This document shows positions 9,901 to 31,139 of a stretch of 64,000 nucleotides of DNA, piece after piece. The position numbers were made by a program, and so were the translations under genes. The stretch comes from Pristiophorus japonicus (lineage: Eukaryota). The stretch lies in NCBI RefSeq assembly GCF_044704955.1, contig NC_091999.1:50344001-50408000 (forward strand). The letters run 5' to 3'. The first letter of the stretch is position 1. Each line of letters starts with the position of its first letter. Below the pieces are notes generated by a model. It was given only the letters and a program-made list of their open reading frames with translations, was not told where the DNA came from and did no database searches.

Positions 9901-10250
9901 CACCTTTACTTTTCAGCCCCCATTATACTTCCCTCTGTCTCCCTGCATAGGTTCCCATCCCACTGCCATATTCGTTTAACCCCTCCCCAACAACACGAGC
10001 AAACTCTCCCCCGTGGACATTGGTTCTGCCCAGGTGCAGAGCGTCTGGTTTGCACTGGTCCCAGCTCCCCCTGAACCGTTTCCAATGTCCCAGGAAATTG
10101 AATCACTCCATTCTGCACCACACATTCATCTGAGCTATCCTGCGATTCCTACTCTGACGAGCAGGTGTCAGTGGCAGCTATCCTGAAATTGCTACCTTTG
10201 AGGTCCTATTTGTTAATTTAGCTCCAGGCTCCCTAAATTCAGCTCGAAAT
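6963..10250 (-). mobile_element. CR1 LINE, nearly complete ORF2 (APE endonuclease + RT) plus ORF1 tail, disrupted
   Basis: Minus-strand ORFs include LCLNARSIRNK, ITEKWL, GGGVAL, RPVSLTSVVGKMLE, QHGFMKGKSCLTNLLEF and FADD. 3' (TTCTATGT)n tail at 6963-6980. Confidence 0.95.
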
Positions 10251-10453
10251 TCCTCAGACAGAGTGAGTCAGACTCAAACACAAACACATGAAGACTCTCT
10301 TAACACAGAGAGTGAGAGGCACAGAAACATTGCATAATCCCATTTCTTTGTCAGTTGAGAATGTTATAAAGTTATCGACATGTACAGATTCAACAGAATA
10401 CATTTGCGTATTACTGAGCAGAATGGGAGGAAATCGGTTTCAATTTAAAGATT

Positions 10454-10537
10454 TACCAAGAGTGGGGTATCGAACACACACAGCTACACACCCATTGGAT
10501 TTTACGTCCAACGCCTAAACCACTCGGCCATCCTGGT
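10454..10537 (-). pseudogene. tRNA-Leu(TAA) pseudogene, copy 1
   Basis: Reverse complement begins ACCAGGATGGCCGAGTGGTTTAGGCGTTGGAC. T-arm and variable arm are damaged and U33 is changed to G. Confidence 0.85.
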
Positions 10538-10634
10538 TTTATCAGTATTCGGATTTTGTCTCTGTGAGAATATGGGCTGCAGCTCCACTCTCACAGACAG
10601 AGGTTTTCAATGAGCATTTTCAAATATTTACAGC

Positions 10635-10880
10635 AATATTGACACAGGGGCAATTCTCCTATTCTTTTTCGAGTAATGCTCTGGGAACTTTCACACCCAC
10701 CCAAGGGTGCAGACGGAGCTTCAATTTAACATTTCATCCGAAAGTCAACAGCTTCAACAATGCAAAATTGCCCAAGTACTGTATTTGAGTGTCAGCCAAG
10801 ATTAAATGCTCAAGTCTCAGGAGAAGGACTGACACACACAACCTCCTGATTCAGCCGAGAATGCTGCCACTGAACCAAAT
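10635..10880 (-). mobile_element. Deu-SINE (SacSINE1-like) 5' portion; part of the array unit, also at about 16750-16990, 19125-19360, 22478-22725 and 25891-26140
   Basis: Minus strand reads a tRNA-like head GGTTCAGTGGCAGCATTCTCGG, then GAGACTTGAGCA...GGCTGACACTCA...CAGTACT and the Deu core CTTTCGGATGAAATGTTAAA. Confidence 0.8.
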
Positions 10881-10963
10881 CTCACATCCGTATTACTTTC
10901 CCCAAGTCTTTTTATAAAGTTCCAGGACATTTGAAGCAATATTCAACATTTTGAAAAAGCTCC

Positions 10964-11035
10964 ACCCTCATCAGGGCATTGAACCCCGACCTCACGAGTG
11001 ACAGGAAGGGATACTAACTACTACACGAACGAGGA
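10964..11035 (-). pseudogene. tRNA-Asp(GTC) pseudogene, copy 1
   Basis: Reverse complement TCCTCGTTCGTGTAGTAGTTAGTATCCC..CCTGTCAC..GGGGTTCAAT. Anticodon GTC is retained, the stems are mismatched, and a T5 terminator lies just downstream. Confidence 0.85.
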
Positions 11036-11696
11036 ACTGACGGGCATTTGCTTTGTCAGAGCAGGAATCGAGCTGTGAACAGAACTGGACAACATGAGAA
11101 GTCGACAGGCACATTGAGAGACAGAGACAAACCGACAAACAGGGAGAGACAGACAGCGAGATAGAGACAAAGTGAGACAGAAAGTATGAGACTGAGAAGG
11201 AGAGGCAGACTGAGTGAGAAAAAGACTCAAACACACACATATACAGATATGTGTGTGTATGTGCTCTTTAAAGAGAGAGAGGGAAAGAATGAGAGAAAGA
11301 CAGTGACAAAGAGAGAGACAGAGAAAGAGTGAGTGACAGATCGAGAGATAGGCACAGATATAAACAGAAAATGATGAAACAGCAGGTTAGAGACAGGAAC
11401 TAACAGAGACAGGCAAAGAGAGAGACAGGTACAGACATGGACAGACAGAGAGGTTGGGAATGAGAGCGACAGTCAGACAGAGAGACTGAGAGAATCCCAT
11501 TGGAACAGAACTGGACATCGTGAGAAAGAGGCAGATAAGTTGAGAGACAGGGAAACAGGAGGAAGGTCAGACTGAATAACAGAATGCCTCATACACGTAC
11601 ATATACAGAGATGTGTTTGTGTGCTCCATAAAGAGAGGGAGGCAAATAGTGATGGAATGACAGGGACAAAGACAGGAGCAAAGAGAGAGACAATTC

Positions 11697-14130
11697 ATAG
11701 AATGCATACGGGACTATTTCTTAGAACAGTATGTAACAGAGCCTACAAGGGAGCAAGCCATCTTGGATCTGGTCCTGTGTAATGAGACAGGAAAAATAAA
11801 TGATCTCCTCATAAAAGATCCTCTCGGAATGAGTGATCACGATATGGTTGAATTTGTAATACAGATTGAGGATGAGGAAGTTGTATCAGAAACGAGAGTA
11901 CGATGCTTAAACAAAGGGGACTACAGTGGGATGAGGGCAGAGTTGGCTAAAGTAGACTGGAAACAAGGACTAAACAGTGGCACAATTGAGGAAAAGTGGA
12001 GGACTTTTAAGGAGCTCTTTCATAGTGCGCAAAAAAATATATTCCAGTGAAAAAGAGGGGCGGCAAGAGAAGTGATAACCAGCCGTGGATAACCAAGGAA
12101 ATAAAGGAGAGTATCAAATTAAAAACCAATGCGTATAAGGTGGCCAAGGTTAGTGGGAAACTACACGATTGGGGAAATTTTAAACGACAGCAAAGAATGA
12201 CTAAGAAAGCAATAAAGAAAGGAAAGATAGATTACGAAAGTAACTGGCGCAAAATATAAAAACAGATAGTAAAAGCTTTTACCGATATATATAACGGAAG
12301 AGAGTGACTAAAGTAAATGTTGGTCCCTCAGAAGATGAGAAGGGAGATTTAATAATGGGAAATGTGGAAATGGCTGAGACCTTAAACAATTATTTTGCTT
12401 CCGCCTTCACAGTGGAATACACAAAAACAATGCCAAAATTTGCAGGCCACAGGAATGTGGGAAGGGAGGACCTCGAGACAATCACTATCACAAGGGGAGT
12501 ACTGATGGACAGGCTAATGGGACTGAAGGTAGACAAGTCCCCTGGTCCTAATGAAATACATCCCAGGGTATTAAAAGAGATGGCTGAAGTTATAGCAGAT
12601 GCATTGGTTATAATCTACCAAAATTCTCTGGACTCTGGGGAGGTACCAGCGGACTGGAGAGCAGCTAATGTAACGCCTCTGTTTAAAAAACGGGGCAGGC
12701 AAAAGGCAGGTAACTATAGGCCGGTTAGTTTAACATCTGTAGTGGGGAAAATGCTTGAAGCTACCATTAAGGAAGAACTAGCGGGACATCTAGATAGGAA
12801 TAGTGCAATCAAGCAGACGCAGCATGGATTCATGAAATGGAAATCATGTTTAACCAACTTACTGGAATTCTTTGAGGATATAACAAGCATGGTAATAGAG
12901 GTGTACCGATGAATGTGGCGTATTTAGATTTCCAAAAGTCATTCGACAAGGTGCCACACAAAATGTTACTGCAGAAGATAAATGTACGCGGAGTCAGAGG
13001 AAATATATTAACATGGATAGAGAATTGGCTGGCGAACAGAAAGCAGAGAGTCGGGAAAAATGGGTCCTTTTCTGGTTGGAAATCAGTGGTTAGTGGTGTG
13101 CCACAGAGATCAATACTGGGACCACAACTGTTTACAATATACATGGATGACCTAGTAGAGGGGACAGAGTGTAGTGCAACAAAATTTGCAGATGACACTA
13201 AGAATAGTGGGAACGCGGGTTGTGCAGAGGACACAGAGAGACTGCAAGGAGATTTGGATAGGTTAAGCGAATGGGCTAAGGTTTGGCAGATGGGATACAA
13301 TGTCGGAAAGTGTGAGGTCATCAACCTTGGGAAAAAAAACAGTAAAAGGGAATATTATTTGAATGGGGAGAAATTACAACATGCTGTGGTGCAAAGGGAC
13401 CTGGAGGTCCTTGTGCATTAATCCCAAAAGGTTAGTTTGCAGGTACAGCAGGTAATCAGGAAGGCGAATGGAGTATTGGCCTTCATTGCGAAAGTTATGG
13501 AGTACAAAAGCAGGGAGGTCTTGCTGCAACTGTATAAGATTTGGTAAGGCCGCAACTGGAGTACTGCGTGCAGTTTTGGTCACATTACTTAAGGAAGGAT
13601 ACACTAGCTTTGGAAGGGGTACAAAGACGATTCACTAGGCTGATTCCAGAAATGAGGGGGTTTCTTTATGATGATAGATTGAGTAGACTGGGTCCTTACT
13701 CCTTAGAGTTCAGACGGATGAGGGGTGATCTTATAGAAACATTTAAAATCATGAAAGGGATAGACAAGATAGAGGCAGAGAGATTGTTTCCACTGGTCGG
13801 GGAGACTAGCACTAGGGGGCACAGCCTCAAAATACGGAGGAGTCAATTTAAAACCGAGTTGAGAAAAAATTTATTCTCCCAGAGGGTTGTGAATCTGTGG
13901 AATTCTCTGCCCAAGGAAGCAGTTGAGGCTAGCTCATTGAATGTTTTCAAGTCAAAGATAGATAGATTTTTAACCAATAAGGGAATTAAGGATTACGGGG
14001 AGAGGGCGGGTAAGTGGAGCTGAGTCCACGACCAGATCAGCCATGATCTTATTGAATGGCGGGGCAGGCTCGTGGGGCTAGATGGCCTACTCCTGTTCCT
14101 AACTATTATGTTCTTATGTTCTTATGTTCA
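11697..14130 (+). mobile_element. CR1 LINE (5'-truncated ORF2 to 3' tail) inserted in the GA-rich spacer
   Basis: ORFs 11763-14023 give endonuclease C-terminus and RT (GNYRPVSLTSVVGK, FADDTK, EYCVQFWS). (TTCTTATG)n tail. The spacer sequence resumes at 14131. Confidence 0.95.
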
Positions 14131-14184
14131 AAGGGGGAGACAGATAGAGAGAAAGACAGATATAGAGAGAGATAGAGAAAATAA

Positions 14185-16142
14185 TTCGGTTCTGTCTTTA
14201 CAAAGGAAGATACAAAAAACCTTCAAAATGTACCAGGGGACTGTGAGTCTAGTGAGAATGAGGAACTGAACGATATCCTTATTGGCGGGAAATTGTATTA
14301 GGGATATTGATGGGAATAATGGCCGATAAATCCCTGGGTCCTGATAGTCTGCATCCCAGAGTACTTACGGAAGTGGCCCTGGAAATAGTGGATGCATTGC
14401 TGATCATTTTCCAACAATCTATCGACTCTGTATCAGTTCCTATTGACTAGAGGGTAGCTAATGTGATGGCACTTTTTAAAAAAGGAGGGAGAGAGAAAGC
14501 GGGTAAATATAAATCGGTTAGCCTGACATCAGTAGTGGGGAAAATTTTGGAATCAATCATTAAGGATGAAATAGCAGCCCATTTGGAAAGCACTGACAGG
14601 ATCGGACCGAGTCAGCATAGATTTATGAACGGGAAATCATGCTTGAGGAATCTTCTGGAATTTTTTGAGGATGTAACGAGTAGAGTGGACAAGGGAGAAC
14701 CAGTGGATGTGGTGTATTGAACTTTCAATAGGCTTTTGACAAGGTCCCGCACAAGAGATTGGTGCACAAAATCCCAGCGCATGATATTGGGATTAATGTA
14801 CTGATGTGGATAGAGAACTGGTTGGCAGACAGGAAGCAGAGAATCGGGATAAACAGGTCCTTTTCAGAATGGCAGGCAGCTACTAGTGAAGTGCCGCAGG
14901 GCTCAGTGCTGGGACCCCAACTCTTTACAATATACATTAACGATTTGGTTGAAGGAATAGAGTGTAATATCTCCAAGTTTGCGGATGACACTAAACTGGG
15001 TGGTATTGCGAGCTGTGAGGAGGATGCTAAGAGGCTGCAGGGTGACTTGGACAGATTAGATGAGTGGGCAATTATACGGCAGATGCAGTATAATGTGGAT
15101 AAATGTGAGGTTATCCATTTTGGGGGCAAAAACACAAAGGCAGAATATTATCTGAATGGCGGCACACTAGAAAAAGGGGAGGTGCAACGAGACCTGGGTG
15201 TCATGGTTCATCAGTCACTGAAAGCGGGCACGCAGGTACAGCAGGCGGTAAAGAAGGCAAATGGCATGCTGGCCTTCATAGCTAGGGGATTTGAATATAG
15301 GAGCAGGGAGACCTTACTGCAGTTGTACAAGGCCTGAGTGAGGCGGCCAGACCTGGTATATTGTGTTCAGTTTTGGTCTCCTAGTCTGAGGAAGGACGTT
15401 CTTGCTATTGAGGGAGTGCAGCAAACCAGTTGCCAAACAGTTCTCTATTCACGCCAGTACCTTAATCCCAATACCATGCACTTGGATTTTGTGCACCAAT
15501 CTCTTGTGCGGGACCTTGTCAAAAGCCTATTGAAAGTCCAAATACACCACATCCACTGGTTCTCCCTTGTCCACTCTACTCGTTACATCCTCAAAAAATT
15601 CCAGAAGTTTCATCAAGCATGATTTCCCTTTCATAAATCCATGCTGACTCGGCCGATATTGTCAACAGACTGATTCCAGGGATGGCAGGACTGTCATATG
15701 AGGAGAGATTGGATCAACTGTGCCTTTATTCATTGGCGTTTAGAATGATGAGAGGGGATCTCATAGAAATATATAAGATTCTGACGGGACTGTACAGGTT
15801 AGATGCGGGAAGAAAGTTCTCGATGTTCGGGAAGTCCAGAAACAGGGGACATAGTCTTTGGATAAGGGGTAGGCCATTTAGCACTGAGATGAGGCGAAAC
15901 TTCTTCACTCAGAGTTGTTGACCTGTGGAATTCCCTGCCGCAGAGAGTTGTTGATGCCAGTTCATTGGATATATTCAAGAGGGAGTTAGATATGGCACTT
16001 ACGGATAAGGGGGTGAAGGGTTATGGAGAGAAAGCAGGAAAGGGGAACTGAAGGAATGGTCAGCCATGAACATATTGAATGGCGGCGCAGGCTCGAGGGG
16101 CCTAATGGCCTAATCCTGCAGTTATTTTCTATGTTTCTATGT
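14185..16142 (+). mobile_element. CR1 LINE, RT to 3' tail, with an internal inverted self-duplication at 15425-15660
   Basis: ORFs 14463-15921 carry RT motifs PQGSVLGP and FADDTKL. TTCTATGT tail at about 16127-16142. Confidence 0.93.
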
Positions 16143-16564
16143 ATCTAAAACTGAAAATGATGAAAATACTCATCAGGTTAGAGACAGGGACAAAGTGAGA
16201 CAGGCAAAGACATGGGCAGACATGATGGGAAAGAGAGAGACAGTCAGACAGAGAGTCTGAGAGAATCCTATTGGAACAGACGTGGGCACCGTGAGAAAGA
16301 GACAGATTGAGAGACAGAGACAAACAGAGAAACAGGCACAAACAGAGTGAGTCAGAGAGAGGCAGACTCAGACTCAAGCACACAAACACATGCACAGCTC
16401 TCTAAAGACAGAAAGGCAGAGACTGAGATACACAGATACATTTCACAATTTCATTTCATGATCGGCTCAGAGTGTCACAGAGTAACAGAAAATTGTTGAT
16501 TCTGCAGATGAAACTCAGGTATCACTGATCAGCATGGGGCAAAATCAGTGATAAATCAAAGAGA

Positions 16565-16646
16565 TTCGAGGAGTGGGGTACGAACTCTCGTGGGAAAATC
16601 TCATTGAATTTTAAGGCTGGCGTCTTAACCAGTCGGCCATCCTGGT
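16565..16646 (-). pseudogene. tRNA-Leu(TAA) pseudogene, copy 2
   Basis: ACCAGGATGGCCGACTGGTTAAGACG... with broken acceptor and anticodon stems. T-loop reads TTCGTAC. Confidence 0.8.
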
Positions 16647-17404
16647 CCTTCCAGTGTTTCGATTCTGTCTCTGTGAGAATCTGGGCTTCAACTCCACCCC
16701 ACAGACACACACATACACATCGGGTTTCAGTGAGCATTTCGGAACATTTTAATAATATTGACACAGGGGCAACTCTCCTATTCTTTTTCGAGTAATGCTG
16801 TGATCCACCCGAGGGTGCAGACGGAGCTTTAATTTAACATTTCTTCCGAAAGTCAACAGCTTCAACAGTGCAAAATTCCCCAAGTACTGCACTTGAGTGT
16901 CTGCCAAGATTATCTGCTCAAGTCTCAGGAGTGGGACTTAAACACACAAACTCCTGATTCAGTCGAGAATACCGCCACTGAACCAAAGCCGATACCAAAG
17001 TTCACAACCGTATTATTTTCATCAAATCTTTTAAAAAATTCCATGACATACCAAATTCATGGTGATGATTTATACAGACAGTTGCACATACACAGATATA
17101 TATATATACCCGATAGAGAGACACAGACACACACACACATAAGCAAAAATATACTCGCACCAACGGACATGTCTATCCCTCTATATGTCTTAGACATATA
17201 GAGGGATAGACAGGCTGAATCACTGTCGCAACTTTGGCTAATTTTTGCGTTTTTCTATACGTAAGTATCGTGAAAATTGCAGTTTAATAAAAATGATTTA
17301 AAAAATGACAGTTTTGAAAGGTGTGGGACGTTATTCCATCTATCCCAGGATGAGTTTTGCAGAGACCTGGTTAAATTGTGAAATGGAATGAAAATGCTGA
17401 GAAT

Positions 17405-17486
17405 CGTAGTCGGCAGGATTCCACCTTTAGGCGAAAAATACGATGGATTTTCGAGTTCATCGCTGTAACCTCTTGCCCACGACTAC
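17405..17486 (-). pseudogene. tRNA-Ser pseudogene (AGA-type body)
   Basis: Ends GTAGTCGTGG...AATCCTGCCGACTACG are intact; internal arms are heavily mutated. Confidence 0.8.
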
Positions 17487-17673
17487 TGACTCGTTATTTA
17501 TTTAAATGTTACTCAGATAAAACTCAGTCATCCACCTCTCTGCAGCAGATGACACAGAATTCTGAAAAAATCTCCTCTTCCTATATTTTTACTATTCTGC
17601 ATTGCTCTGGAACTTTTTAATATTAATCTATACCAAGAAACAGAAGTAAAATCCTGCATTTTGAAAAAGCTTC

Positions 17674-17744
17674 CTGCCCGTTGGGAATTGAAACTCTGTC
17701 TTCTGCATAACAGGCCGGGATACTTAGCACTATTCCAACGAATG
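17674..17744 (-). pseudogene. tRNA-Asp-derived pseudogene, copy 2 (anticodon position reads GTT)
   Basis: Same position in the unit as copy 1; AGTATCCCGGCCTGTTATGCAG. Confidence 0.7.
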
Positions 17745-18442
17745 TGGATTTAGTCAAAGCAGGGATCGAACTGTGAAGAGAACTGGACTCCATGAGAAGT
17801 GGAGAGACACATTGAGAGACAGAGACAAACGGACAAACAGGGAGAGACAGACAACGAGATAGAGAGAACGAGAGACAGAAAGTGTGAGACTGAGAACGAG
17901 AGGCAGACGAATGGAGAAAAAAACTCAAACACATACTTATACAGAGATATGTGTGTGCTCTATAAAGAGAGAGAGGGAAAGAGTGAGACAAAGACAGTGT
18001 TAATGACAGTGACAAGGACAGAGACAGATAGAGAGAGAGCGACAGATAGAGAGAGAGACAAAGATATAAACAGACAATGATGGAAATACTCAGCAGGTTA
18101 AAGACAGGAACTAACAGCGACAGGAAAAGAGATACAGACAGGCAGAGGCATAGACAGACAGAGATGATGGGAAAGAGAGAGGCAGTCAGACAGAGAGACT
18201 GAGAGAATCCCATTCGAACAGAATTGGACACCGTGAGAAAGAGACAGACTCATTGAGAGACAGAGACAAACAGGGAAACAGGGAGAGACAGATAGCGAGA
18301 TAGAGACAGAGAGAGACAGAAAGTTTTAGACTGAGAGTGAGGGTCAGACTGAGTGACACAAAGATTCAAATACTTACATACACAGAGATGTGTTTGCGTG
18401 CTCCATAAAGAGAGGGAGGCAAATAGTGATGGAATGACAAGA

Positions 18443-18618
18443 NNNNNNNNNNNNNNNNNNNNNNNNNNNNNNNNNNNNNNNNNNNNNNNNNNNNNNNNNN
18501 NNNNNNNNNNNNNNNNNNNNNNNNNNNNNNNNNNNNNNNNNNNNNNNNNNNNNNNNNNNNNNNNNNNNNNNNNNNNNNNNNNNNNNNNNNNNNNNNNNNN
18601 NNNNNNNNNNNNNNNNNN
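18443..18618. other. Assembly gap (N run) inside a GA-rich spacer of the array
   Basis: Run of N. Confidence 1.
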
Positions 18619-18933
18619 ATGATGGAATGACTCATCAGGTGAGAGACAGGGACCAACACAGACAGGTTAAGATATGGACAGAGATGAAGGGAAAGAGAGA
18701 GACGGTCAGACAGAATCCCTTTGGAACAGAATTGGACACAGTGAGAACAAGACAGAGGCAGACTTCGAGAGACAAAGACACAAACACAGCTTGCGAAAGA
18801 GAGAGGCAAAGACTGAGCGACACAGATACATTTCATTATCTGCTCAGAGTGTCACCGAAACATGCAAATGCAACAGATGTAAATCGGGTATCACTGAGCA
18901 GCATGGGAAATAATCTCTGTTTAATTAAGCAAT

Positions 18934-19016
18934 TACCAGTTGTGGGGTTCGAACCCGCGCAATTATAATTTCATTGGATTTTAAGTCCAACACATTAACC
19001 ACTCAGCCATCCTGGG
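18934..19016 (-). pseudogene. tRNA-Leu(TAA) pseudogene, copy 3
   Basis: Anticodon arm TTGGA-CTTAAAA-TCCAA and GGTTCGAACC B box are intact. Acceptor stem and variable arm are broken. Confidence 0.85.
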
Positions 19017-19535
19017 CCTGGCAGAAACGGGCTTTGTCTCTGTCAGAATTTGGGCTTCAGCGCCACCCCCACAGACACACACACACACAGAGGGTTTCAG
19101 CGAGGATGTTCGAACATTTTTAGTGATATTGACACGAGGGCAACTCTCCGATTCTTTTTCGAGTAATGCTCTGGGACCTTTCACATCCATCCGAGGGTGC
19201 AGGCGGAGCTTTAATTTTACATTTCATCCGATGGTCAACAGCCTCAACAATGCAAAATTCCCTAAGTACTGCATTTGAGTGTCAGCCAAGATGATGCGCT
19301 CAAGTCTCAGGAGAGGGACTTACACAAACGACCTTTTGAATGGAGCCACTGAAACAAAGCCGATACCAAAGATCACAAGCGTATTATTTTCCCCAAGTTT
19401 TTTAAAAAGTTCCAGGACATACCAAATTCTTGGTGATGATTTCCATAGACAGTTGCACAGACACAGAGACATACATACAGATAGACATAGACAGACACAC
19501 ACACACATAAAATAACCAAAAATATACACGCATCA

Positions 19536-20265
19536 ACATAGAAACATAGAAACATAGAAATTAGTTGCAGGAGTAGGCCGTTGGCCCTTCGAGCCTGCAC
19601 CACCATTCAATAAGATCATGGCAGATCATTCAACCTCAGTACCTATATCCTCCTTTCCCTCCATATCCCTTGATCCCTTGAGCCGTAAGAGCCATATCTG
19701 ACTCCCTCTTCAATATATCTAATGAACTGGCTTCAACAACTTTCTGCGGTAGAGAATTCCACAGGTTAACCACTCTCTGAATTAAGCTCTTTCTCCTCAT
19801 CTTGGTCCTCAATGGCTTACCCCTTATTCTTAGACTGTGACCCCTGGTTCTCGAACTCCCCAGCAACAGAAACATTCTTCCTGCCTCTCACTTGTCCAAT
19901 CTCGTCAGAATTTTATATGTTTCTATCAGATCCCCTCTCATTCTTCTAAACTCCAGTGGATACGAGCAGAGCTGATCCAGTCTATCCTCATATGTCAGTC
20001 CTGCTATCCCTGGAATCAAGCTGGTGAACCTTCGCTGTTCTCCATCAATAGCAAGGACGTCCTTCCTCAGATTTGGAGACCAAAACTAACAAAATATTTA
20101 ACGTGTGGCTTCACCAAGGCCCTGTACAACTGCAGGAAGACTTTCCTGCTCCTAAATTCAAAGCACCTAGCTATGAAGGCGAACATGCCATTTGCCTTCT
20201 TCACTGCCTGTTGCACTTGCATGCCCACTTTCAATGAAAGATGTAGCATGACACCCAGATCAAGA
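19536..20265 (-). mobile_element. CR1 3' fragment that is part of the long array unit; same insertion at about 22897-23615 and 26298-27008
   Basis: Same 5' truncation point (CCCAGATCAAGAT) and same insertion site (after ACACGCATCA) in three consecutive units. Confidence 0.92.
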
Positions 20266-20784
20266 TGTACACAGAGTGCCTTAGACAAATAGACGGATAG
20301 ACAGGCAGGGTCACTGTCGCTGCTTTGGCTGGCCTTTGCATTTGTCCGTCGAGAATGCTGCCACTGAACCAAAGCCAATGCAACGTCACAAACGTATTAT
20401 TTTCTCCAAGTCTTTTGAAAAAGTTCCAGGACATACCAAATTCATGGTGATGATTTCCACAGACAGTTGCACATACACAGAGACATATATACAGATAGAC
20501 AGATACAGACACACACACACACACTCACACACACACACACATAACCAAAAATATACAGGCACCAACGGACATGCACAGATGACTTAGACATATCGAGGGA
20601 TAGACAGGCTGAATCACTACTTTGGCTGATTTTTGCATTTTTCTATCCGTATGTATCGTGAATATTGCAGACTAATAGAAATGTGAAAAAAATTTCAGTG
20701 TTGAAAGGTTTGGGACGTTATTCCATCTATCTCAGGATCAGTTTTGCAAAACCTGGTTAAATTGTAAAGAAAAGTGCTGAGAAT

Positions 20785-20866
20785 TGTAGTCGGCAGGATT
20801 CGAACCTACACGCAGCAAACCCAAAGTATTTCTAGTCCATCGCTTTAACCGCTCGGCCACAATTAC
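20785..20866 (-). pseudogene. tRNA-Ser(AGA) pseudogene
   Basis: GTAATTGTGGCCGAGCGGTTAAAGCGATGGACTAGAAAT...GTAGGTTCGAATCCTGCCGACTACA. A/B boxes are recognisable; the anticodon stem 3' side is mutated. Confidence 0.88.
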
Positions 20867-21085
20867 TGCGTCTCTGGCACTTTAAATGTTACTCAGAAAA
20901 AACTCAGTCGTCCATCTCTGTGCAGCAGACGGCAACAGAATCCTGAAAAAGTCTCCGTTTGCATAAAAACCTGGAAGAGGCAATCTCCTCTTGCTGTATT
21001 TTTACTGTTCTATATTGCTCTGGAACTTTTTAATAAAATCGAAACCAAGAAACAGAAGTAAAATTCGACATTTTGAAAAAACTGC

Positions 21086-21157
21086 TGCGACGTCGGGAAA
21101 TTGAACCCGGTTCTCCCCCATAACAAGCGGGGATAATCACCACTAAACGGACGAGGG
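21086..21157 (-). pseudogene. tRNA-Asp-derived pseudogene, copy 3 (GTT)
   Basis: CCCTCGTCCGTTTAGTGGTGATTATCCCCGCTTGTTATGGGGGAGAACCGGGTTCAAT. Confidence 0.8.
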
Positions 21158-22297
21158 TACGGGTTGCGTTAGAGCAGCAATCGAGCTATGAACAGAAGTC
21201 GACAGACACATTGATCGACAGAGACAAACCGACAAACGGGGACAGACAGACAGCGAGAGAGAGAGACAACGCGAGACAGAAAGGGTGAGACTGAAAAGTG
21301 AGGCAGACTCAGTGAGAAAAAGACTCAAACACCTACATATACAGAGATGTGTGTGTGTGATCTATAAAGAGAGAGAGGGAAAGAGTGAGAGAAAGACAGT
21401 GACAAGGAGAGAGACAGATAGAGAGAGAGCGACAGATAGAGAGAGAGACAGATATAAACAGAAAATGATGGAAATGCTCAGCAAGTTAGAGGTAGCAACG
21501 ACCAGCGACAGGCAAAGAGAGAGAGATAGGCAGAAACATAGACAGACAGAGATGATGAGAAAGAGTGAGACAGTCAGACAGAGAGACTGAGTGAATCCCT
21601 TTCGAACAGAACTGGACACCGTGAGAAAGAGACAGACAGATTCAGAACCAGAGACAAACAGGGAAACAGGGAGAGACAGACAGTGAGATAGAGACAAAGT
21701 GAGACAGAAAGTTTGAGACTGAAAGGGAGGATCAGACTGAATGAGAAAAAGACTCAAACACATACATACACAGAGATGTATTTGCGTGCTCCAAAAAGAG
21801 AGGGGGGGCAAATAGTGATGGAATGACAGAGAAAAGGACAGGGACAAAGAGAGAGAAAAAGAGGGCGACAGATAGAGAGAAAGACAGATAGAGAGAGAGA
21901 GACATAGAGACAAACACAGAAAATAATGGAAATACTTATCAAGTTAGAGACAGGGACTAACAGAGACAGGCAAAGACATGGACAGACAGAGATAATGGGA
22001 AAGAGAGAGACAGTCAGACAGAGAGTCTGAGAGAATCCCATTGCAACAGTACTAGACACCGTGAGAAAGAGACAGATTGAGAGACAGCGACAGACAGAGT
22101 GGGTCAGAGTGAGACAAAGTCTCAAACACACAAACACATGCACAGCTCTCGAAAGAGAGAGTGCGGCAGAGACATTTCACAATTTCATTTCATTATCTGC
22201 TCAGAGTGTCACATAGTTACAGAAAACTAGAGATTCAGCAGATGAAAATCGGGTATCACTGAGCAGGATGGGAAAAATATCTGTTTAATTAAGGAAT

Positions 22298-22380
22298 TAC
22301 CAGGAGTGGGGTTCGAACCCACGCGGGTATAAACCCATTAGATTTTAAGTCTAACGCTTTTCCCACTCGGCCATCCTGGT
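22298..22380 (-). tRNA. tRNA-Leu(TAA), copy 4; nearly intact cloverleaf, possibly functional
   Basis: ACCAGGATGGCCGAGTGGGAAAAGCGTTAGACTTAAAATCTAATGGGTTTATACCCGCGTGGGTTCGAACCCCACTCCTGGTA. Perfect 7-bp acceptor, 5-bp anticodon, 4-bp variable and 5-bp T stems; A73; one D-stem mismatch; T5 terminator about 20 nt downstream. Confidence 0.75.
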
Positions 22381-24134
22381 CTTGATCCTGTCAAAGGATG
22401 GACTCTGCCTCTGTGAAAATCTGGGCTTCAGCTCCAGACATATCGGATTTCAGGAAGCATTTACAAACATTGTTCGTTATATTGACACGGGCGCAACTCT
22501 CCTATTATTTTTCGACTAAGGCTCTGGGAACTTGCACATCCACCCGAGGGTGCAGATGGAGCTTCAATTTAAAATTTCAGCTGATGGTCAACAGCTTCAA
22601 GAATGCAACATTCCCCAAGTACTGCATTTGAGTGTCAGCCAAGATTATGGGTTCAAGTCTCAGGAGTGGGACTTCCACACACAACCTCCTGATTCAGTCG
22701 AGAAAGGAGCCACTGAACCAAAACCGATACCAAAGTTCACAACTGTATGATTTTCCCCAAGTTTTTTAAAAAGTTCCAGGTCGTACCAAATTCATGGTGA
22801 TGATTTCCACAGACAGTTGGACACACACAGAGACATACATACAGAGAGATACACAGACACACGCACACACAATAACCAAAAATATACACGCATCACCATA
22901 GAAACATAGAAATTAGGTGCAGGAATATGCCATTCGGTCCTTCGAGCCTGCACTACCATTTAATAACATCATGGCTGATCATTCAACCTCAGTACCCCTT
23001 TCCTGCTTCCTCTTTATACCCCTTCATCCCTTTAGCCGTAAGGGCAATATCTAACTCCCTTTTGAATATATCTAATGAACTGGCCTCAACGACTTTCTGC
23101 AGTGGAAAATTTCAGAGGTTATCCACTCTCTGAGTGAAGACGTTTCTCTTCATTTCGGTTTCTAAATGGCTTACCCCTTACTCTTAGACTGTGATCCTTG
23201 GTCTCGAACTCCTCAGCAGCGAGAACATGCTTCCAGCCTCTAAGCTGTCCAATTTCGTCACAATTTTTCATGTTTCTTCTGATCTCCTCTCATTCTGCTA
23301 AACTCCAGTGGATACCAGTCCAGTTCATCCAGTCTCTCCTCATATGTCAGTCCTGCCATCCCGGGAATCATGCTGGTGAACTTACGCTGTACTCCCTCAA
23401 TATCAAGGACGTCCTTCCTCAGATTCGGAGACCAAAACTGAACACAGTATTCCAGGTGTGGCCTCACGGAGGCCCTGTTCAAATGCAGTAAGACCTCCCT
23501 GCTCCTATACTCAAATCCCCTAGCTATGAAGGGGAACATGCCATTTGCCTTCTTCACCATCTGCTGCACCTGCATACCAACAATCAATGACTGATGTACC
23601 ATGGCACCCAGATCAAGATATACAAAGATTGCCTTAAACAAGTAGATGGATAGACAGGCAGGGTCACTGTCGCAACTTTGGCTGTCTTTTGCGTTTTTCA
23701 GTCGAGGATACTGCCACTGAACCAAAGCCGATACCAAAGTTCACAACCGTATTATTTTCCCCAAGTCTTTTTAAAAATGTTCCAGCACATACCAAATTCA
23801 TGGTGATGATTTCCACAGACAGTTGCAAATACACAGAGACATATATACAGATAGAAAGACTCAGAGACACACACACCCACACACATAACCAAAAATATAC
23901 ATGCACCAACAGACATGATTTTGACATATAGACGGATAGACAGGCTGAATCACTGTCGCTACTTTGGCTGATTTTTGCGTTTTTCTATCCGTATGAATCA
24001 TGAATATTGCAGATGAATAAAAATGAGAAATAGATGTCAGTGTTGAAATGTGTGGGACGTTATTCTGCCGATCTCAGGATCCGTTTTGCAAAAACCTGGT
24101 TAAATTGTAAAATGGAATGAAAAATGCTGTGAAT

Positions 24135-24215
24135 CGTAGCCGGCAGGATTCGAAACTCACGCAGAAAACCGAAAGGATTTCTGGACCGTCGCTTTAACCA
24201 CTCGGCAACAACGAC
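24135..24215 (-). pseudogene. tRNA-Ser(AGA) pseudogene
   Basis: Positional homologue of the other Ser copies; GCCGAGTGGTTAAAGCG...CCAGAAAT...TTCGAATCCTGCCGGCTACG. Confidence 0.8.
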
Positions 24216-24433
24216 TGCGTCTCTGGCCCTTTAAATGTTACTCAGAAAAAACTCAGTCATCCATCTCTGTTCAACAGACGGCCACAGAATCCTGAAAAAG
24301 TCTCCGTTTGCAAAAGATCTGTAAGAGGCAATCTCCTCTTGCTGTATTTTTACTGTTCTATATTGCTGTGGAACTCTTTAATAAAATCTATACCAAGAAA
24401 CAGAAGTAAAATTCGACATTTAGAAAAAGCTGC

Positions 24434-24505
24434 TTTTCCGTCGGGGAATTGAACCTGGTTCTCCCGCGTAAAAGGGGGGCATAATCGGCACGACAGGGAC
24501 GAGAG
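24434..24505 (-). pseudogene. tRNA-Asp-derived pseudogene, copy 4
   Basis: 3' half ACGCGGGAGAACCAGGTTCAATTCCCCGACGGAA is recognisable; the 5' half is decayed. Anticodon position reads TTT. Confidence 0.72.
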
Positions 24506-25695
24506 AACGGGTTGCGTCAGAGCAGTAATCCAGCTGTGAACCGAAGTCGACAGAAACATTGATCGACAGAGACAAACCGATAAACAGGGATAGGCAGACA
24601 GCGAGAGAGAGACAACGAGAGACAGAAAGGGTGAGACTGAAAAGTCAGTCAGAGACAGCGAGAAAAAGACTCAAACACCTAAATATACACAGATGCGTGT
24701 GTGTGATCTATAAAAAGAGAGAGGGAAAGAGTGAGAGAAAGACAGTGATAAGGTGAGAGACAGATAGAGAGAGAGCGACAGATAGAGAGAGAGACAAAGA
24801 TATAAACAGAAAATGATGGAAATACGCAGCAGGTTAGAGACAGGAACTACCAGCGACAGGCAAAGAGAGACAGACAGGCAGAAACATAGACAGACAGAGA
24901 TGATGGGAAAGAGTGAGACAGTCAGACAGAGAGATTGAGAGAATCCCATTCGAACAGAACTGGACACGGTGAGAAAGAGACAGACACATTGAGAACCAGA
25001 GACAAACAGGGAAACAGGGAGAGACAGACAGTGAGATAGAGACAAAGAGAGACATAAACATTGAGTGTGAAAGCTGGACCAGACTGAATGAGAAAAAGAC
25101 TCAAACACATACATACACAGAGATGCATTTGCGTGCTCCATAAAGAGAGGGAGGCAAATAGCGATGAAATGACAGAGAAAAGGACAGGGACAAAGAGAGA
25201 GACAAAGAGGGAGACATATAGAGAGAAAGACAGATAGAGAGAGAGTGAGATAATCAGAGACAAAAACAGAAAATAATGGAAATACTTATCAGGTTAGAGT
25301 CAGGGACTAACAGAGGCAGGCAAAGACATGGACAGAAAGAGATAATGGGACAGAGAGAGACAGTCAGACAGAGAGTCTGAGAGAATCCCATTGCAACAGA
25401 ACTAGACACCGTGAGAAAGAGACAGATTGAGAGACAGAGACAAACAGAGAAACAGGGACAGACAGAGTGTGTCAGAGAGAGGCAGACTGAGAGAGACAAA
25501 GACTCAAACACACAAACACAAACACAGCTCTCTAAAGAGAGAGAGCGGCAGAGACCGAGCGACACAGATACATTTCACAATTTCATTTTATTATAGGCTC
25601 AGAGTGTCATATCGTTACAGAAAATTGGAGATTCAGCATTTGAGAATCGTGTATCACTGAGCAGGATGGGAAAAATCTACTTTTAATTAAGGAAT

Positions 25696-25778
25696 TACCA
25701 GGATTGGTGTTCAAACCCACGCCGGTATAAACCCATTAGATCTTAAGTTCAACGCATTTACCACTCGGCCATCCTGTT
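25696..25778 (-). pseudogene. tRNA-Leu(TAA) pseudogene, copy 5
   Basis: AACAGGATGGCCGAGTGGTAAATGCGTTGAACTTAAGATCTAATGGG...; B box mutated (GGTTTGAAC). Confidence 0.85.
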
Positions 25779-27538
25779 CCTGATCCTGTCAGAGCTTGGA
25801 CTCTGCCTGTGAGAATCTGAGCTTCAGCTCCACGCCCACAGCGACACACAGACACATAGGATTTCAGGGAGCATTTACGAACATTTTTCGTTATATTGAC
25901 ACGGGCGCAACTCTCCTATTCTTTTTCGACTAAGACTCTGGGAACTTTCACATCCACCCGAGGGTGCAGATGGAGCTTCAATTTAAAACTTCAGCCGATG
26001 GTCAACAGCTTCAACAATGCAACATTTCCCAAGTAATGCATTTGAGTGTCAGCCAAGATGATGTGTTCAAGTCTCAGAAGTGGGACTTACACACACAACC
26101 TCCTGATTCAGTCGAGAATGGAGCCACTGAACCAAAACCGATATCAGAGATCACAACCGTATTATTTTCCGCAAGTTTTTTAAAAAGTTCCACGACGTAC
26201 CAAATTCATCGTGATGATTTCCACAAAGAGTTGCACGTACACAGAGACATACATACAGATAGGCATACACACACAATAACCAAAGATGTACACGCATCAA
26301 CATAGAAATATAGAAATCAGGTGCAGGTATATGCCATTTGGCCCTTCGAGCCTGCACCACCATTCAATAAGATCATGGCTCATCGTTCAACCTCAGCACC
26401 CCATTCCTGCTTTCTCTCCATACCCCTTGATCTCTTTAGCCATAAGGGCCCTTTTGAATATATCTAATGAACTGGCCTCAACGTCATTCTGCGGTAGAAA
26501 ATTTCACAGGTTAACCACGCTCTGAATGAAGAAGTTTCTCCTCATCTCGGTCCTAAATTGCTTGCACCTTATTCTTAGACTGTGATCCTTTGTCTCGAAC
26601 ACCCCAGCAACGAGAACATTCTTCCAGCCTCGAAGCTGTCCAATCTCGTCAGAATTTTATATGTTTCTATGAGATCCCCTCTCATTCTTCTAAACTCCAG
26701 TGGATACCAGCCCAGTTGATCCAGTCTCTCCTCATATGTCAGTCCTGCCATTCCAGGAATCATGCTGGTGAACCTTCGCTGTGTTCCCTCAATAGCAAGA
26801 ACGTCCTTCCTCAGATTTGGAGACCAAAACTGAACACAATATTTAAGGTGTGGCCTCACCAAGTTGTACAATTGTAGGAAGACCTCCCTGCTCCTATACT
26901 CAAATCCCCTCGCTATGAAGGCGAACATGCCATTTGCCTTCTTTACCGCCTTCTGCACCTGCATACCAACAATCAATGACTGATGTACCATGACACCCAG
27001 ATCAAGATATACATAGGTTGCCTTAGACAAATAGATGGATAGGCAGGCAGGGTCACTGTCGCTACTTTGGCTGGCTTTTGCGTTTTTCAGTCGAGGATGC
27101 TGCCACTGAACCAAAGCCGATAACAAAGTTCACAACAGTATTATTTTCCCCAAGTCTTTTTTAAAAGTTCCAGAACATACCAAATTCATGGTGATGATTT
27201 CCACAGACAGTTGCACATACACAGGGACATAGATACAGATAGACAGACACAGCGACACACACGCACAAATAACCAAAAATATACATGCACCAACGGACAT
27301 GCACAGATGCCTTATACATATAGAGGGATAGACAGGCTGAATCACTTTCGCTACTTTGGCTGATTTTTGCGTTTTTATATCTGTATGCATCCTGAATATT
27401 GCAGATATTGAGATATTGCCTAAAAAATGAGAAATAGATTTCAGTGTTGAAAGGTGTGGGACGTTCTTCCGCCGATCTCAGGATCAGTTTTGCAAAAACC
27501 TTTATAAATTGTAAAATGGAATGAAAAATGCTGAGAAT

Positions 27539-27608
27539 CAGAGCCGGCAGGATTCGTTCCTGCGCGGGGTAAACCCAAACATCGCGTTAACCACTCGGCG
27601 ACAACTAC
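27539..27608 (-). pseudogene. tRNA-Ser pseudogene with deleted anticodon arm
   Basis: GTAGTTGTCGCCGAGTGGTTAACGCGATG is joined directly to TTTGGGTTTACCCCGCGCAGG; about 12 nt are missing. Confidence 0.8.
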
Positions 27609-27827
27609 TGCGTCTCTGGCACTTTAAATGTTATTCAGAAAAAAGTCAGTCATCCATCTCTGTGCAGCAGACGGCCACAGATTCCTGAAAAAGTCTCCGT
27701 TTGCAAAAAATCTGGAAGAGTCAATCTCCTCTTGCTGTATCTTTACTGTTCTATATTGCTCTGAAACTTTTTAATATGAATCGATACCAAGAAACAGAAG
27801 TAAAATTCGACATTTTGAAAAAGCTGC

Positions 27828-27899
27828 TTGTTTATTGGGGAATTGAACCCGGTTCTCCCACGTAACAGGCAGGGATACGCACCACTATGCGGATGAGAA
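27828..27899 (-). pseudogene. tRNA-Asp-derived pseudogene, copy 5 (GTT)
   Basis: TAGTGGTGCGTATCCCTGCCTGTTACGTGGGAGAACCGGGTTCAATTCCCC; acceptor stem broken. Confidence 0.8.
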
Positions 27900-28608
27900 T
27901 ACGGATTGTGGTAAAGCAGTTATCGAGCTGTGAAAATAAGTCGACAGACACATTGAGAGACAGAGACAAATTGACAAACAGGGAGAGACAGACAGCGAGA
28001 TAGAGACAACGAGAGACAGAAAGTGTGAGACTGAGCAGGAGAGGCAGACTGAGTGAGAAAAAGACTCAAACATATACATATACAGAGATGTGTGTGTGTG
28101 ATCTATTAAGAGAGAGAGGGAAAGAGTGAGAGAAAGACAGTGATAAACACAGTGACAAGGAAAGAGACAGATAGAGAGAGAGCGATAGAGACTAAAATAG
28201 AAAATGATGGAAATACTTCTCAGCTTACAGGCAGGGACTAACAGAGACAGGCAAAGACATGGACAGAGCGAAATGATGGGAAAGAGAGAGCCAGTCAGGC
28301 AAAGAGTCTGAGAGAATCCCATTGGAACAGACGTGGCACCATGAGAAAGAGACAGATTGAGAGACAGAGACAAACAGAGAAACAGGGACAGACAGAGTGA
28401 GTCAGACTGAGAGAGACAAAGACACAAACATACAAAACTCTCTGAAGAGAGAGAGAGAGGCAGAGACCGAACGACACAGATACATTTCACAATTTCATTT
28501 CATTATCGGTTCAGAGTGTCACATTGTTACAGCAAATTGCTGATTCAACCGATGAAAATCCGGTCTCACTGATCAGAATGGGAGGAAATCCGTGTAAAAT
28601 TAAAGAGA

Positions 28609-28689
28609 TACCAGGAGTGGGGTACGAACCCACGCGGGAAAAACCATTGAATTTTAAGGCCAACGCCTCACCCACTCGGCTATCCTGGT
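28609..28689 (-). pseudogene. tRNA-Leu(TAA) pseudogene, copy 6
   Basis: Acceptor stem ACCAGGA/TCCTGGT is intact. Anticodon stem TTGGC/TTCAA is mismatched; T-loop TTCGTAC. Confidence 0.85.
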
Positions 28690-29532
28690 CCCGTGAGAAC
28701 CTGGATTCTGTCTCAGTGAGAATCTGGGCTTCAACCCCAACCCCACATAAAAACACATACACATCGTCTTTCAGTGAGCATTTACGAACATTTTTAGTAA
28801 TATTGAAACGGGGGCAATATCCAGATATTTTTGTTTTTGTATCCCCTCAAAACAATACTATTTAGATGATACTGCCTCTCCATGTTCCACCCAAAGTACA
28901 CCGCTTCTCAATTATCCGCATTAAATTGCACTGCCATGTCCCGGCCCATTTCACTCGTCTCTCTGATTCCTCTTCAAGTCTGTTACTATCATGCTCACTA
29001 TTGGCTACGTTGCCAGGTTTTGCTTCATCTTCGAACTTCGAGATGGAATCCCTATAACCAAGTCCAGGTCATTGTTATATAACAAGAACAACAATGGGAA
29101 TTGAAATGGACCGTTTTAAGGAGAAACTTCCAATTAACCGGATTTTGGAATGGTATTTGATTCGGATTATTTATTGAGTGGGAGGAAGGAGGAAACTCAA
29201 GAGACGTCCATTCAATAGGATGGAATAGAGCCCAGCTCATAGTGCGCTGAGTAGGGAGAAACTGCTTCCGCTGTTTGGCGATGGACTACTCCCCCAAAAT
29301 TACCAGCTTTTCCTGGAAGAAAGATAAAATCACCAGCCTTTCGTGGAAGAAAGATAAAGAGCCGGTTAACCATCACCGAGTCAGAGGTGTGCAGCAGCAC
29401 TATCTACTGCGAGGTTTGACGTGGTGTGTCGGTCTGGGCCATCGCAATGCCAGGTTAGTGATGTTGGATACAGGGCAAACTGTGATAAGATGAGAAGGTA
29501 TGTTCAACTTGTACAGAAATTTGGTTAGACGA

Positions 29533-29945
29533 CACTTAGAGTGCTGTGTACAGTTCTGGTCTCCATATTACACTTAGAATGCTGTGTACAGTTCTGTTCT
29601 CCATATCACACTTAGAGTACTGTGGATAGTTCTGGTCTCCCTATCGCACTTAAAATACTGTGCACCGTTCTGGTCTCCCATATCATAATTAAAATACTGT
29701 GTATAGTTCTGGTCCCCTATCATACTTAGAATATTATGCACAGTTCTGGTTTCCATATCACATGTAGAATACTGTCCACAGTTCAGGTCTCCATATCATA
29801 CCAAGAATATTGTTTACAGTTCTGGTCTCCTAATCACTCTTGGAATACTGTGTAACGTTCTGGTCTCCAGATCATACTAAGAATATTATGCACAGTTCCG
29901 ATCTGCAGATTACACTGAGAAGACTGTGCACAGTTCTGCTCTCTG
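29533..29945 (+). repeat. 38-bp minisatellite (about 11 copies) derived from the CR1 ORF2 HLEYCVQFWSPY segment
   Basis: Unit consensus CACTTAGAATACTGTGTACAGTTCTGGTCTCCATATCA, preceded by CR1 sequence TTGTACAGAAATTTGGTTAGACGA. Confidence 0.92.
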
Positions 29946-30062
29946 TAAATGCCAGGTTAGTGTTAGTCTGACAGCGAGGAACCTGTTAAAATATAAGGAC
30001 ACTTTGCATTTCTTAATGATTGATTTTGCAAGCAATGTCAATAATTTGTCTTCTCTTTGAAG

Positions 30063-30380
30063 ATCCTGAACGCGACATCATTCCTCCAACTGTTCTCCTC
30101 ACGCTGAGTTCTACTGAACAAATCACCAGCAGCAGATATGCAAGCGCCGTGTGTTCAATCATCGAATTCCGGCCAAAGTCACTGACCGTGAATTGGCTGG
30201 AGAGTGGACAACTCCTGGATTCGGGCTCCGTCACCTCTCCCGTGTTTGAGGTGAACGGGAACTTCTCGGCGGCCAGTCGGCTGACAGTCCCCACCGAGGA
30301 ATGGTTCACCGGCTCGGTCTACACCTGCCAGGTCACTCATGAAGTGGTCACGCAAAGCCGTAACTTCACCAGATCTCAGG
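30063..30380 (+). pseudogene. IGHM: IgM heavy-chain constant exon Cmu2 (open frame, within a truncated locus)
   Basis: [45 protein letters not shown]...[26 protein letters not shown]: C1-set Ig with both Cys and the Trp. Acceptor TTTGAAG, donor G/GTAAGA, phase 1-1. Confidence 0.92.
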
Positions 30381-30524
30381 GTAAGAGGCACAATCCCGGG
30401 AGGTTACAGACCATTCTGAGCGCTGATCTCAGTCAGGACTTTTATTGAAATTAGTAAAAAGCACTGAACTATTCCTTATTTCCAATCATGCAGTTTGTAT
30501 ATTCTTGTGATTACAAACTTGCCT

Positions 30525-30945: not shown

Positions 30946-31139
30946 CTCATTGTTCAGGATTTAATAAACTCGCCAACGAAGCTTTCCCCCTGCTCTGATT
31001 TCAGGCAGTGAGTGACGTGCCCTAATACTCAGGTTTATCCTGAGTTGGCTGATCATATACGGAGCGGCAGTCAGAGTTTGGAACCCTTTACTGCTAGCTG
31101 TCCAGGAACCCACTGTTGGAATGGGCATCTACCCTATTC

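Follow-up and report, generated by a model that had tools for sequence, protein, structure and literature searches.

A decaying tandem array of Asp-Ser-Leu tRNA units in the shark Pristiophorus japonicus, in which tRNA bodies diverge faster than their co-duplicated spacers

A 64,000-nucleotide window of the Pristiophorus japonicus genome (RefSeq assembly GCF_044704955.1, contig NC_091999.1, forward-strand positions 50,344,001 to 50,408,000; positions below are counted from its first letter) was found to contain a tandem array of tRNA-derived copies whose tRNA bodies have diverged more than any other part of the repeated unit, about 2.1 times as far as the spacers copied with them (0.54 vs. 0.26 changes per column). 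The array occupies the minus strand between positions 10250 and 28832 and comprises six head-to-tail units, designated U0 to U5 from left to right, each of which reads, along the direction of transcription, AG/TC-rich spacer, tRNA-Asp, tRNA-Ser, spacer, SINE (short interspersed element) and tRNA-Leu. Both the excess divergence of the tRNA bodies and a LINE (long interspersed element) fragment amplified together with the unit had gone unseen in a first-pass annotation of this DNA. The explanation preferred here, which we hold to be probable, is a local tandem expansion followed by germline mutagenesis linked to RNA polymerase III (Pol III), unmasked by the loss of selection.

The main rate test was performed on U1-U4, leaving out the LINE block as well as U0 and U5, which are incomplete. 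In this comparison, 127 changes were found in 237 tRNA columns and 422 in 1636 spacer columns, and none of 100,000 random placements gave a value as high. Stratification by base class yielded a Mantel-Haenszel odds ratio of 2.2, with a significant excess in the tRNAs over the spacers at A/T sites (33/94 vs. 161/866, p = 4e-4) and at non-CpG G/C sites (40/82 vs. 169/552, p = 0.002); the corresponding figures for CpG sites were 21/34 and 25/54 (p = 0.19). The excess was unchanged under three alignment settings, and it was also present among columns lying more than 5 columns away from gaps (76/171 vs. 269/1119, p = 8e-8) and in the youngest duplication taken alone (42/224 vs. 241/2627, p = 2e-5; p = 0.003 with CpG columns masked). 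Private changes exceeded the flank rate in 13 of the 14 copies tested, the Leu copy of U5 not being among them, and the partition rate of Ser (2.16) exceeded those of its flanks (0.84 and 0.73), that of Asp being 2.55 against 0.78.

Over all 15 copies, divergence peaks in the 20 nt immediately upstream of the tRNAs (-20 to -1), with 0.80 changes per column compared with 0.63 in the bodies and 0.30-0.42 in the other bins (p = 4e-5). No strand asymmetry was found (C>T 9.3%, G>A 7.8%), and the tRNA-like head of the SINE stays at background, with 0.25 changes per column. Within the bodies, the promoter boxes changed less than the remaining positions (0.50 vs. 0.71 per column, pooled figures to which no significance test was applied; p = 0.04 for Leu alone). 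Clustered or compensatory changes were looked for in the tRNA bodies and none were found.

The array itself is real, with a fixed content, order and strand, and is not an artefact. The self-comparison of the window that the first-pass annotation had suggested revealed tandem structure from approximately 10250 to 28832, and a copy census with nhmmer, seeded with a single copy per element, recovered the same 15 tRNA-derived copies as that annotation, all on the minus strand and in fixed order: 6 Leu-TAA, 4 Ser-AGA and 5 Asp-bodied copies, with non-self E-values from 6e-4 to 3e-16 (Table 1). Their alignments cover full-length bodies together with flanks common to the units. When profiles built from the copies were scanned over the 64 kb, nothing further was detected except cross-hits between Leu and Ser and one 32-nt match with an E-value of 0.057. 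The reported retention of oligo-T terminators was borne out as well, since a run of at least four T (T4) lies within 30 nt downstream of 13 of the 15 copies, compared with 15% of random 30-mers, a contrast between copies that are not independent. Successive Leu copies are spaced by 6111, 2369, 3364, 3398 and 2913 bp. The proposed period of 2.4-3.4 kb thus describes four of the five intervals and fails for the first, which contains two LINE insertions and no Ser copy and measures 1710 bp without the LINEs. Likewise, a SINE was found in five of the six units and not in every unit as proposed, the truncated U5 ending within it; U0 lacks Ser. Units are 2.4-3.4 kb long with a GC content of 44%, and differ from each other by 5-17% in most spacer segments and by 12-42% between tRNA copies. 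Both array ends adjoin other elements, and the count of six units is a minimum because an assembly gap lies inside the array.

Table 1. Features of the tandem tRNA array and of the LINE copies within it.
Feature	Position	Strand	Remarks
Tandem array, six Asp-Ser-SINE-Leu units U0-U5	10250..28832	-	U0 without Ser, U5 truncated
tRNA-Leu(TAA) copy, U0	10454..10537	-	2/24 pairs broken, no T4 terminator
SINE remnant, U0	10637..10880	-	
tRNA-Asp pseudogene, U0	10964..11034	-	Sole Asp copy with GTC; Ser block deleted at ~10932
LINE in AG-rich spacer of U0	11693..14128	+	Endonuclease and reverse transcriptase remnants, octamer tail; other family than in-unit LINE, 33-36% apart
Second LINE in spacer of U0	14179..16143	+	In-unit LINE family; internal inverted duplication 15431-15664
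tRNA-Leu(TAA) pseudogene, U1	16565..16646	-	10/24 pairs broken
SINE remnant, U1	16756..16989	-	
tRNA-Ser pseudogene, U1	17405..17486	-	
tRNA-Asp-bodied pseudogene, U1 (GTT)	17673..17744	-	
Assembly gap in AG-rich spacer	18443..18618	.	176 N
tRNA-Leu(TAA) pseudogene, U2	18934..19016	-	7/24 pairs broken
SINE remnant, U2	19127..19360	-	
LINE 3' end, co-amplified copy 1	19535..20261	-	
tRNA-Ser(AGA) copy, U2	20785..20866	-	Both promoter boxes, T4 run; Rfam 35 bits with 8 non-standard pairs flagged
tRNA-Asp-bodied pseudogene, U2 (GTT)	21085..21156	-	
tRNA-Leu(TAA), U3, best preserved	22298..22380	-	Rfam 58.9 bits, 1/24 pairs broken
SINE remnant, U3	22480..22724	-	
LINE 3' end, co-amplified copy 2	22897..23614	-	
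tRNA-Ser(AGA) pseudogene, U3	24135..24215	-	
tRNA-Asp-bodied pseudogene, U3 (TTT)	24433..24504	-	
tRNA-Leu(TAA) pseudogene, U4	25696..25778	-	6/24 pairs broken
SINE remnant, U4	25894..26138	-	
LINE 3' end, co-amplified copy 3	26300..27003	-	
tRNA-Ser pseudogene, U4	27539..27608	-	12-nt deletion through anticodon loop
tRNA-Asp-bodied pseudogene, U4 (GTT)	27827..27898	-	
tRNA-Leu(TAA) copy, U5	28609..28689	-	Rfam 50.7 bits, B box changed, 3/24 pairs broken

Most of the surplus tRNA copies are free of purifying selection. ARAGORN called 4 of the 15 copies, as did Rfam at its gathering cut-off, and Rfam in E-value mode retrieved 5; none of the Asp copies was called as Asp by any tool. Lowered ARAGORN thresholds were rejected for counting because they produced many spurious calls and mis-typed the Asp copies. 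When the plurality consensuses were submitted at a lowered (80%) threshold, tRNA-Leu(TAA) and tRNA-Ser(AGA) were called and the Asp consensus was not. The Asp label is based on a comparison by eye: approximately 55 of the 62 called positions among the first 65 of the plurality consensus match the tRNA-Asp-GTC sequence given in PMC5699543 and PMC12217144. The anticodon is GTC in one of the five Asp bodies, GTT in three and TTT in one. A functional remoulding from Asp to Asn was considered for the GTT copies and set aside in favour of a lesion, since their acceptor ends and A-box regions are damaged; the shared and old change from GTC to GTT (17673-27898) nevertheless represents an Asp-to-Asn type of switch frozen in pseudogenes. 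In the tRNA copies, 81% of the cells are paired compared with 79.5% after shuffling, and no excess of covariation was seen in Leu. Both promoter boxes and a T4 run were found together in 2 of the 15 copies, using rough box patterns that are poorly suited to Asp, and only the Leu copy at 22298 is in addition nearly fully paired. This copy has both boxes, a T5 terminator, one broken pair out of 24 and a single private change in 83 positions, compared with 7 in its sister copy (p = 0.06), so that it may still be a working gene and an exception to the relaxed selection seen in the others. Judged from these sequence features, the array is probably under no selected function today, barring at most one or two residual genes. 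Fourteen further Rfam matches to other RNA families within 10000-29200 scored far below the gathering level and were taken as chance.

Several observations indicate that the array continued to duplicate as it decayed. SINE distances are 9-14% among most units and 5.3% between U3 and U4, and distances are nested, with approximately 5-12% for the youngest duplication and approximately 13% for the older SINE pairs. Trees built from different segments disagree, the Leu/SINE block grouping U3 with U4 (99%) and the AG spacer grouping U2 with U3 (100%), and the base of the tree is nearly star-like. In a shifted register, the stretch that runs from the U2 spacer lying 5' of Ser as far as the Ser of U3 differs from the next such stretch by 5.6-15.7%, with the highest values at the Asp and Ser windows, and U2-U4 differ unusually little (5.5-7.4%) in the spacer 5' of Ser. 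Lesions are shared: the Asp anticodon change is common to U1-U4, the anticodon-stem change in Ser and the LINE to U2-U4, and Leu changes are shared by U3 and U4 and by U1 and U5. The shared lesions, together with the nested and segment-incongruent trees, indicate that units kept duplicating locally after gene decay had begun, and the incongruent trees and shifted register form the pattern given by unequal crossing-over with staggered breakpoints. The near-star base would agree with an initial burst or with excision of the block from a larger array; a homogeneous parent array may have existed at the time of this first burst, and is not needed. Dating is loose, giving approximately 40-60 million years with the faster and several hundred with the slower of two rates quoted in PMC5499810, which differ about 6-7 fold.

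A LINE 3' end of approximately 720 bp is present in U2-U4, inside a duplicated spacer stretch of approximately 290 bp, and its three in-unit copies form one clade (99% ultrafast bootstrap, UFBoot) against 7 dispersed copies, so that a single LINE insertion was amplified with the unit. The element, presumably of the CR1 clade to judge from its octamer tail, matches the 3' end of the copy at 6952-9922. Longer LINE copies contain RVT_1 matches at 8015-8437, 12876-13418 and 14732-15334, and weak endonuclease matches at 9440-9922 and 11661-12047. For vertebrate neutral DNA it is unusual that transitions are so few relative to transversions among all LINE copies (ratio 0.7-1.5) and that CpG decay in the window is so weak (about twofold). 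Within one LINE of the U0 spacer, 15431-15664 is an inverted duplicate of 14594-14827; its 93% identity makes it about as old as the youngest array duplication.

The SINE remnant is approximately 245 bp long and 3'-truncated, and is found in U0-U4, the 5 units that extend far enough to contain it. Over approximately 160-210 nt it is matched by a dispersed element at 30501-30940 (E-values from 1e-14 to 1e-18), the single long dispersed copy of the window, to which the array copies are about 60% identical. By eye, an A-box-like stretch is present in the array copies and a B-box-like stretch only in the dispersed copy, the B box of the SINE head being degenerate in all five array copies. The element may be SacSINE1-like. 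Two of its short motifs are also present in BivaMD-SINE1, the carrier of a published partial Deu domain; a motif search in the supplement of PMC5804259 and in full text gave no match.

Under the preferred explanation, the starting point would have been a cluster of three genes, Asp-GTC, Ser-AGA and Leu-TAA, on one strand of the shark genome, each with an oligo-T terminator, together with an old SINE whose promoter was degenerate. This cluster expanded in place, as indicated by the trees, presumably by repeated unequal crossing-over with staggered breakpoints, and one unit gained the LINE 3' end before being triplicated. During part of their history, surplus copies would have remained targets of Pol III binding and transcription in the germline, and changes caused by local mutagenesis would then have built up in the bodies and in the 20 nt upstream of them about twofold faster than in the spacers. 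The tRNA loci of humans and of other species have been reported to mutate at 7-10 times the average rate, most strongly 10-15 nt upstream, with selection keeping the bodies (Thornlow et al., PMC6130373); the effect is described as nearly limited to active genes, a point shown for snRNA (small nuclear RNA) genes, as free of strand asymmetry and as sparing SINEs (10.1101/2022.08.20.504670), and flanks have served as a proxy for the unselected mutation input (PMC13034040, PMC13010820). The pattern in the array fits such mutagenesis in location, strand symmetry and the sparing of the SINE, the bodies here being unprotected. At the active rate seen in humans, the 2.1-fold excess would require activity during approximately 12-18% of the time since duplication, and decay may have been self-limiting, mutagenesis ending once the promoter was hit. 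The lower change rate of the boxes fits such promoter-limited activity, and fits residual selection as well.

Other results weigh against this explanation. Relative to the in-unit LINE (U2-U4), the excess is only 1.6-fold (68/224 vs. 135/700, p = 8e-4) and loses significance when CpG columns are masked (35/151 vs. 115/653, p = 0.13); similarly, the comparison of Ser and Asp with their adjacent spacers falls to p = 0.11 in a three-unit CpG-masked test. The Leu flanks, over 100-200 bp, evolve as fast as Leu or faster (relative rates of 1.46 and 1.33 vs. 1.15). The specific C>T/G>A signature of the pattern in PMC6130373 is absent, all substitution classes being raised, and the non-CpG-prone sites of the tRNAs show 27 transitions and 48 transversions. 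The excess also remains in Asp copies with an A-box alteration that they already had in common. Furthermore, none of the 19 background windows is as GC-rich or folds as stably as the tRNA windows, so that controls based on them extrapolate, and the data come from one locus and one haplotype with non-independent copies.

The last of these sequence properties lies at the centre of a different explanation, according to which the array had the same history and GC- and CpG-rich, hairpin-prone tRNA gene DNA (tDNA) simply decays faster than AT-rich spacer without any need for transcription. The GC content of the tRNA windows (0.50-0.55) and their DNA fold energies (-9.4 to -11.3 kcal/mol), both beyond the background range, agree with it, as do the larger number of changes in Leu stems than in loops (43/286 vs. 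18/209, p = 0.04) and the dependence of the LINE comparison on CpG columns. However, the excess is present at A/T sites and in the unstructured 5' flank, CpG transitions in the tRNAs are only about 1.5 times as frequent as non-CpG ones (18 of 84 dinucleotides lost), and background divergence is tied neither to GC content (rho = 0.20, p = 0.42) nor to fold energy (rho = 0.35, p = 0.14, with the wrong sign). Template switching would give clustered or compensatory changes, which were not seen, and inactive human snRNA pseudogenes are reported not to be hypermutable (10.1101/2022.08.20.504670). We regard a sequence-intrinsic cause as unlikely; CpG decay as the main cause was rejected, being weak in this window. 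The first-pass annotation had instead seen in the block an orphon or array edge, once part of a large and homogeneous tDNA satellite of Leu/Ser/Asp units, that escaped homogenisation and decayed. The near-star base of the tree with the older SINE pairs at 9-14%, the very many and clustered tRNA loci reported for sharks (10.1101/2025.06.08.657570), the gathering of dead genes at the ends of the Arabidopsis array described in PMC2886086, and array ends that abut other elements, with a gap inside, would all suit this origin. A simple escape predicts a star tree and private lesions, and nested distances, incongruent trees and shared lesions were found in their place; later duplications copied already damaged genes and the LINE insertion, so that the block evolved as an array of its own. 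Since it also leaves the faster decay of the tRNA bodies unexplained and agrees with the preferred explanation for the first burst only, an orphon origin is possible and, on balance, rather doubtful.

Gene conversion could in principle generate the contrast by homogenising the spacers between units, or by converting the tRNA bodies from other tDNA paralogues, and the mosaic trees do reveal exchange between units, as may the uniformity of the spacer 5' of Ser in U2-U4. Conversion tracts would, nevertheless, have to skip three islands of 70-80 bp in every unit, changes in the bodies are scattered and structure-breaking whereas functional donors would repair them, and the SINE and LINE, which have many paralogues, are not raised, all of which renders conversion improbable. 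Still less weight, indeed hardly any, can be given to the idea that the tRNA-like segments represent the heads of SINEs from dispersed families or that the repeats arose in assembly. Low tool scores and one gap are all that would speak for it; full-length bodies are directly followed by oligo-T, head-plus-body copies were not found elsewhere in the window, and the order is fixed, with shared spacers, 5-17% divergence in most spacer segments and a nested phylogeny. On both points the first-pass annotation, which had proposed a tandem tDNA unit with full-length tRNA genes and had considered an assembly artefact unlikely, was correct.

An immunoglobulin (Ig) heavy-chain constant-region pseudogene occupies 29254-36873 on the plus strand, beginning approximately 420 bp from the array end. 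It comprises four C domains, of which the first is broken, together with a secretory tail and a membrane exon, and contains stop codons and frameshifts. Its four-domain layout with secretory tail and membrane exon suggests an IgM-type gene; no V segment was matched in the window. The exon at 30065-30379 encodes an Ig C1-set domain that is 78% identical to a Pristiophorus japonicus protein and 58% to one from Scyliorhinus torazame (3 matches among 193 candidates). These identities by themselves point to a shark, probably a squalomorph, in agreement with the shark origin proposed in the first-pass annotation. The intron stretch preceding the second C exon (29881-30054) matches a section of the Pristiophorus gene model P0004 (76%), and the model therefore seems to contain intron-derived sequence that this window shares. 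The long dispersed SINE mentioned above (minus strand) sits in an intron of the pseudogene, and a SINE tail piece lies at 44056-44147; a 38-bp minisatellite of 10.8 copies (29532-29943) apparently arose by expansion of a stretch of LINE coding sequence. At 58836-61821, two LINE copies of one family lie tail to tail around an octamer repeat (60732-60769), forming a large diverged inverted repeat. On the other side of the array, a decayed element at approximately 3200-6950 resembles, by eye, an LTR (long terminal repeat) retroelement or provirus and contains a short stretch with a weak reverse transcriptase match (E = 0.05), and a rhodopsin-family receptor is represented by its C-terminal part at positions 3-311 (plus strand; 7tm_1, E = 0.002).

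There is nothing exceptional in the array as such: tandem tRNA units that carry pieces of retroelements have been described in human and mouse, tandem arrays in Arabidopsis and clustered tRNA loci in sharks. No report of this unit, or of tRNA pseudogene bodies outpacing co-duplicated spacers, was found in a search of open-access papers. The value of the array is that of a measuring device, in which apparently unselected bodies stand beside neutral DNA of the same age, with evidence coming from one locus. Current estimates of Pol III mutagenesis are described as resting on flanks or rare variants, because selection purges the bodies (PMC6130373, PMC13034040, 10.1101/2022.08.20.504670). We tentatively suggest, as a generalization that on present evidence may well not hold, that many surplus tandem tDNA units in shark genomes are still transcribed by Pol III in the germline once selection no longer acts on them, and that this transcription is what destroys them. 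If so, such arrays would be natural mutation-accumulation experiments, since their co-duplicated neutral spacers and retroelement inserts are of exactly equal age, and would yield the rate and spectrum of mutation in tRNA bodies without purifying selection in a cartilaginous fish, as well as the half-life of unselected tRNA genes. If the effect were genome-wide, it would help to explain the fast turnover of surplus shark tRNA loci and would permit a test of whether mutagenesis stops at promoter death, and ages of tRNA pseudogenes estimated from body divergence would be about twofold too old.

The abundance and clustering of tRNA loci in this array agree with what has been reported for elasmobranchs (10.1101/2025.06.08.657570), a study that counts loci scoring at least 50 in tRNAscan-SE and that, in its available portion, describes no unit structure or decay. 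The SINE, with a tRNA-like head followed by a central region that has two short motifs in common with a partial Deu domain, may be related to the SacSINE1/DeuSINE elements of sharks (PMC5499810, PMC4824008), and differs from them in its 3' truncation and degenerate B box. Among tandem arrays, the Ser-Tyr-Tyr array of Arabidopsis chromosome 1 (27 triplet units, PMC2886086) is likewise made of three-tRNA units, expanded by unequal crossing-over, with neutral drift in copy number and non-functional genes. It carries other isotypes, however, and shows concerted evolution and many functional genes, whereas the shark copies are nearly all dead and lie in units with a SINE and a LINE.

The human tDNA variable-number tandem repeat (VNTR) at 1q23.3 and its mouse orthologue (PMC4041453) share with the shark array a tandem unit that combines Leu and Asp genes with microsatellites and fragments of retroelements. 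Each unit is reported to carry LTR and LINE fragments in human, and LTR and SINE fragments in mouse, so that captured retroelements in tDNA units are not new. In contrast to the shark units of 2.4-3.4 kb, with 44% GC and genes on one strand, the human unit is 7.3 kb long and GC-rich, with five genes on both strands and 98% identity between units, and this near-identity of a homogenised satellite is not seen in the shark array. Moreover, the tRNAs are the conserved part between human and mouse, whereas they are the least conserved part of the shark array. With loci of Pol III mutagenesis (PMC6130373; 10.1101/2022.08.20.504670), the array has in common the peak just upstream, the lack of strand asymmetry and the sparing of SINEs. 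According to the same sources, selection conserves the bodies over evolutionary time, and human tRNA loci, even inactive ones, are more conserved than reference DNA; the shark bodies diverge faster than reference DNA and lack the specific transition signature.

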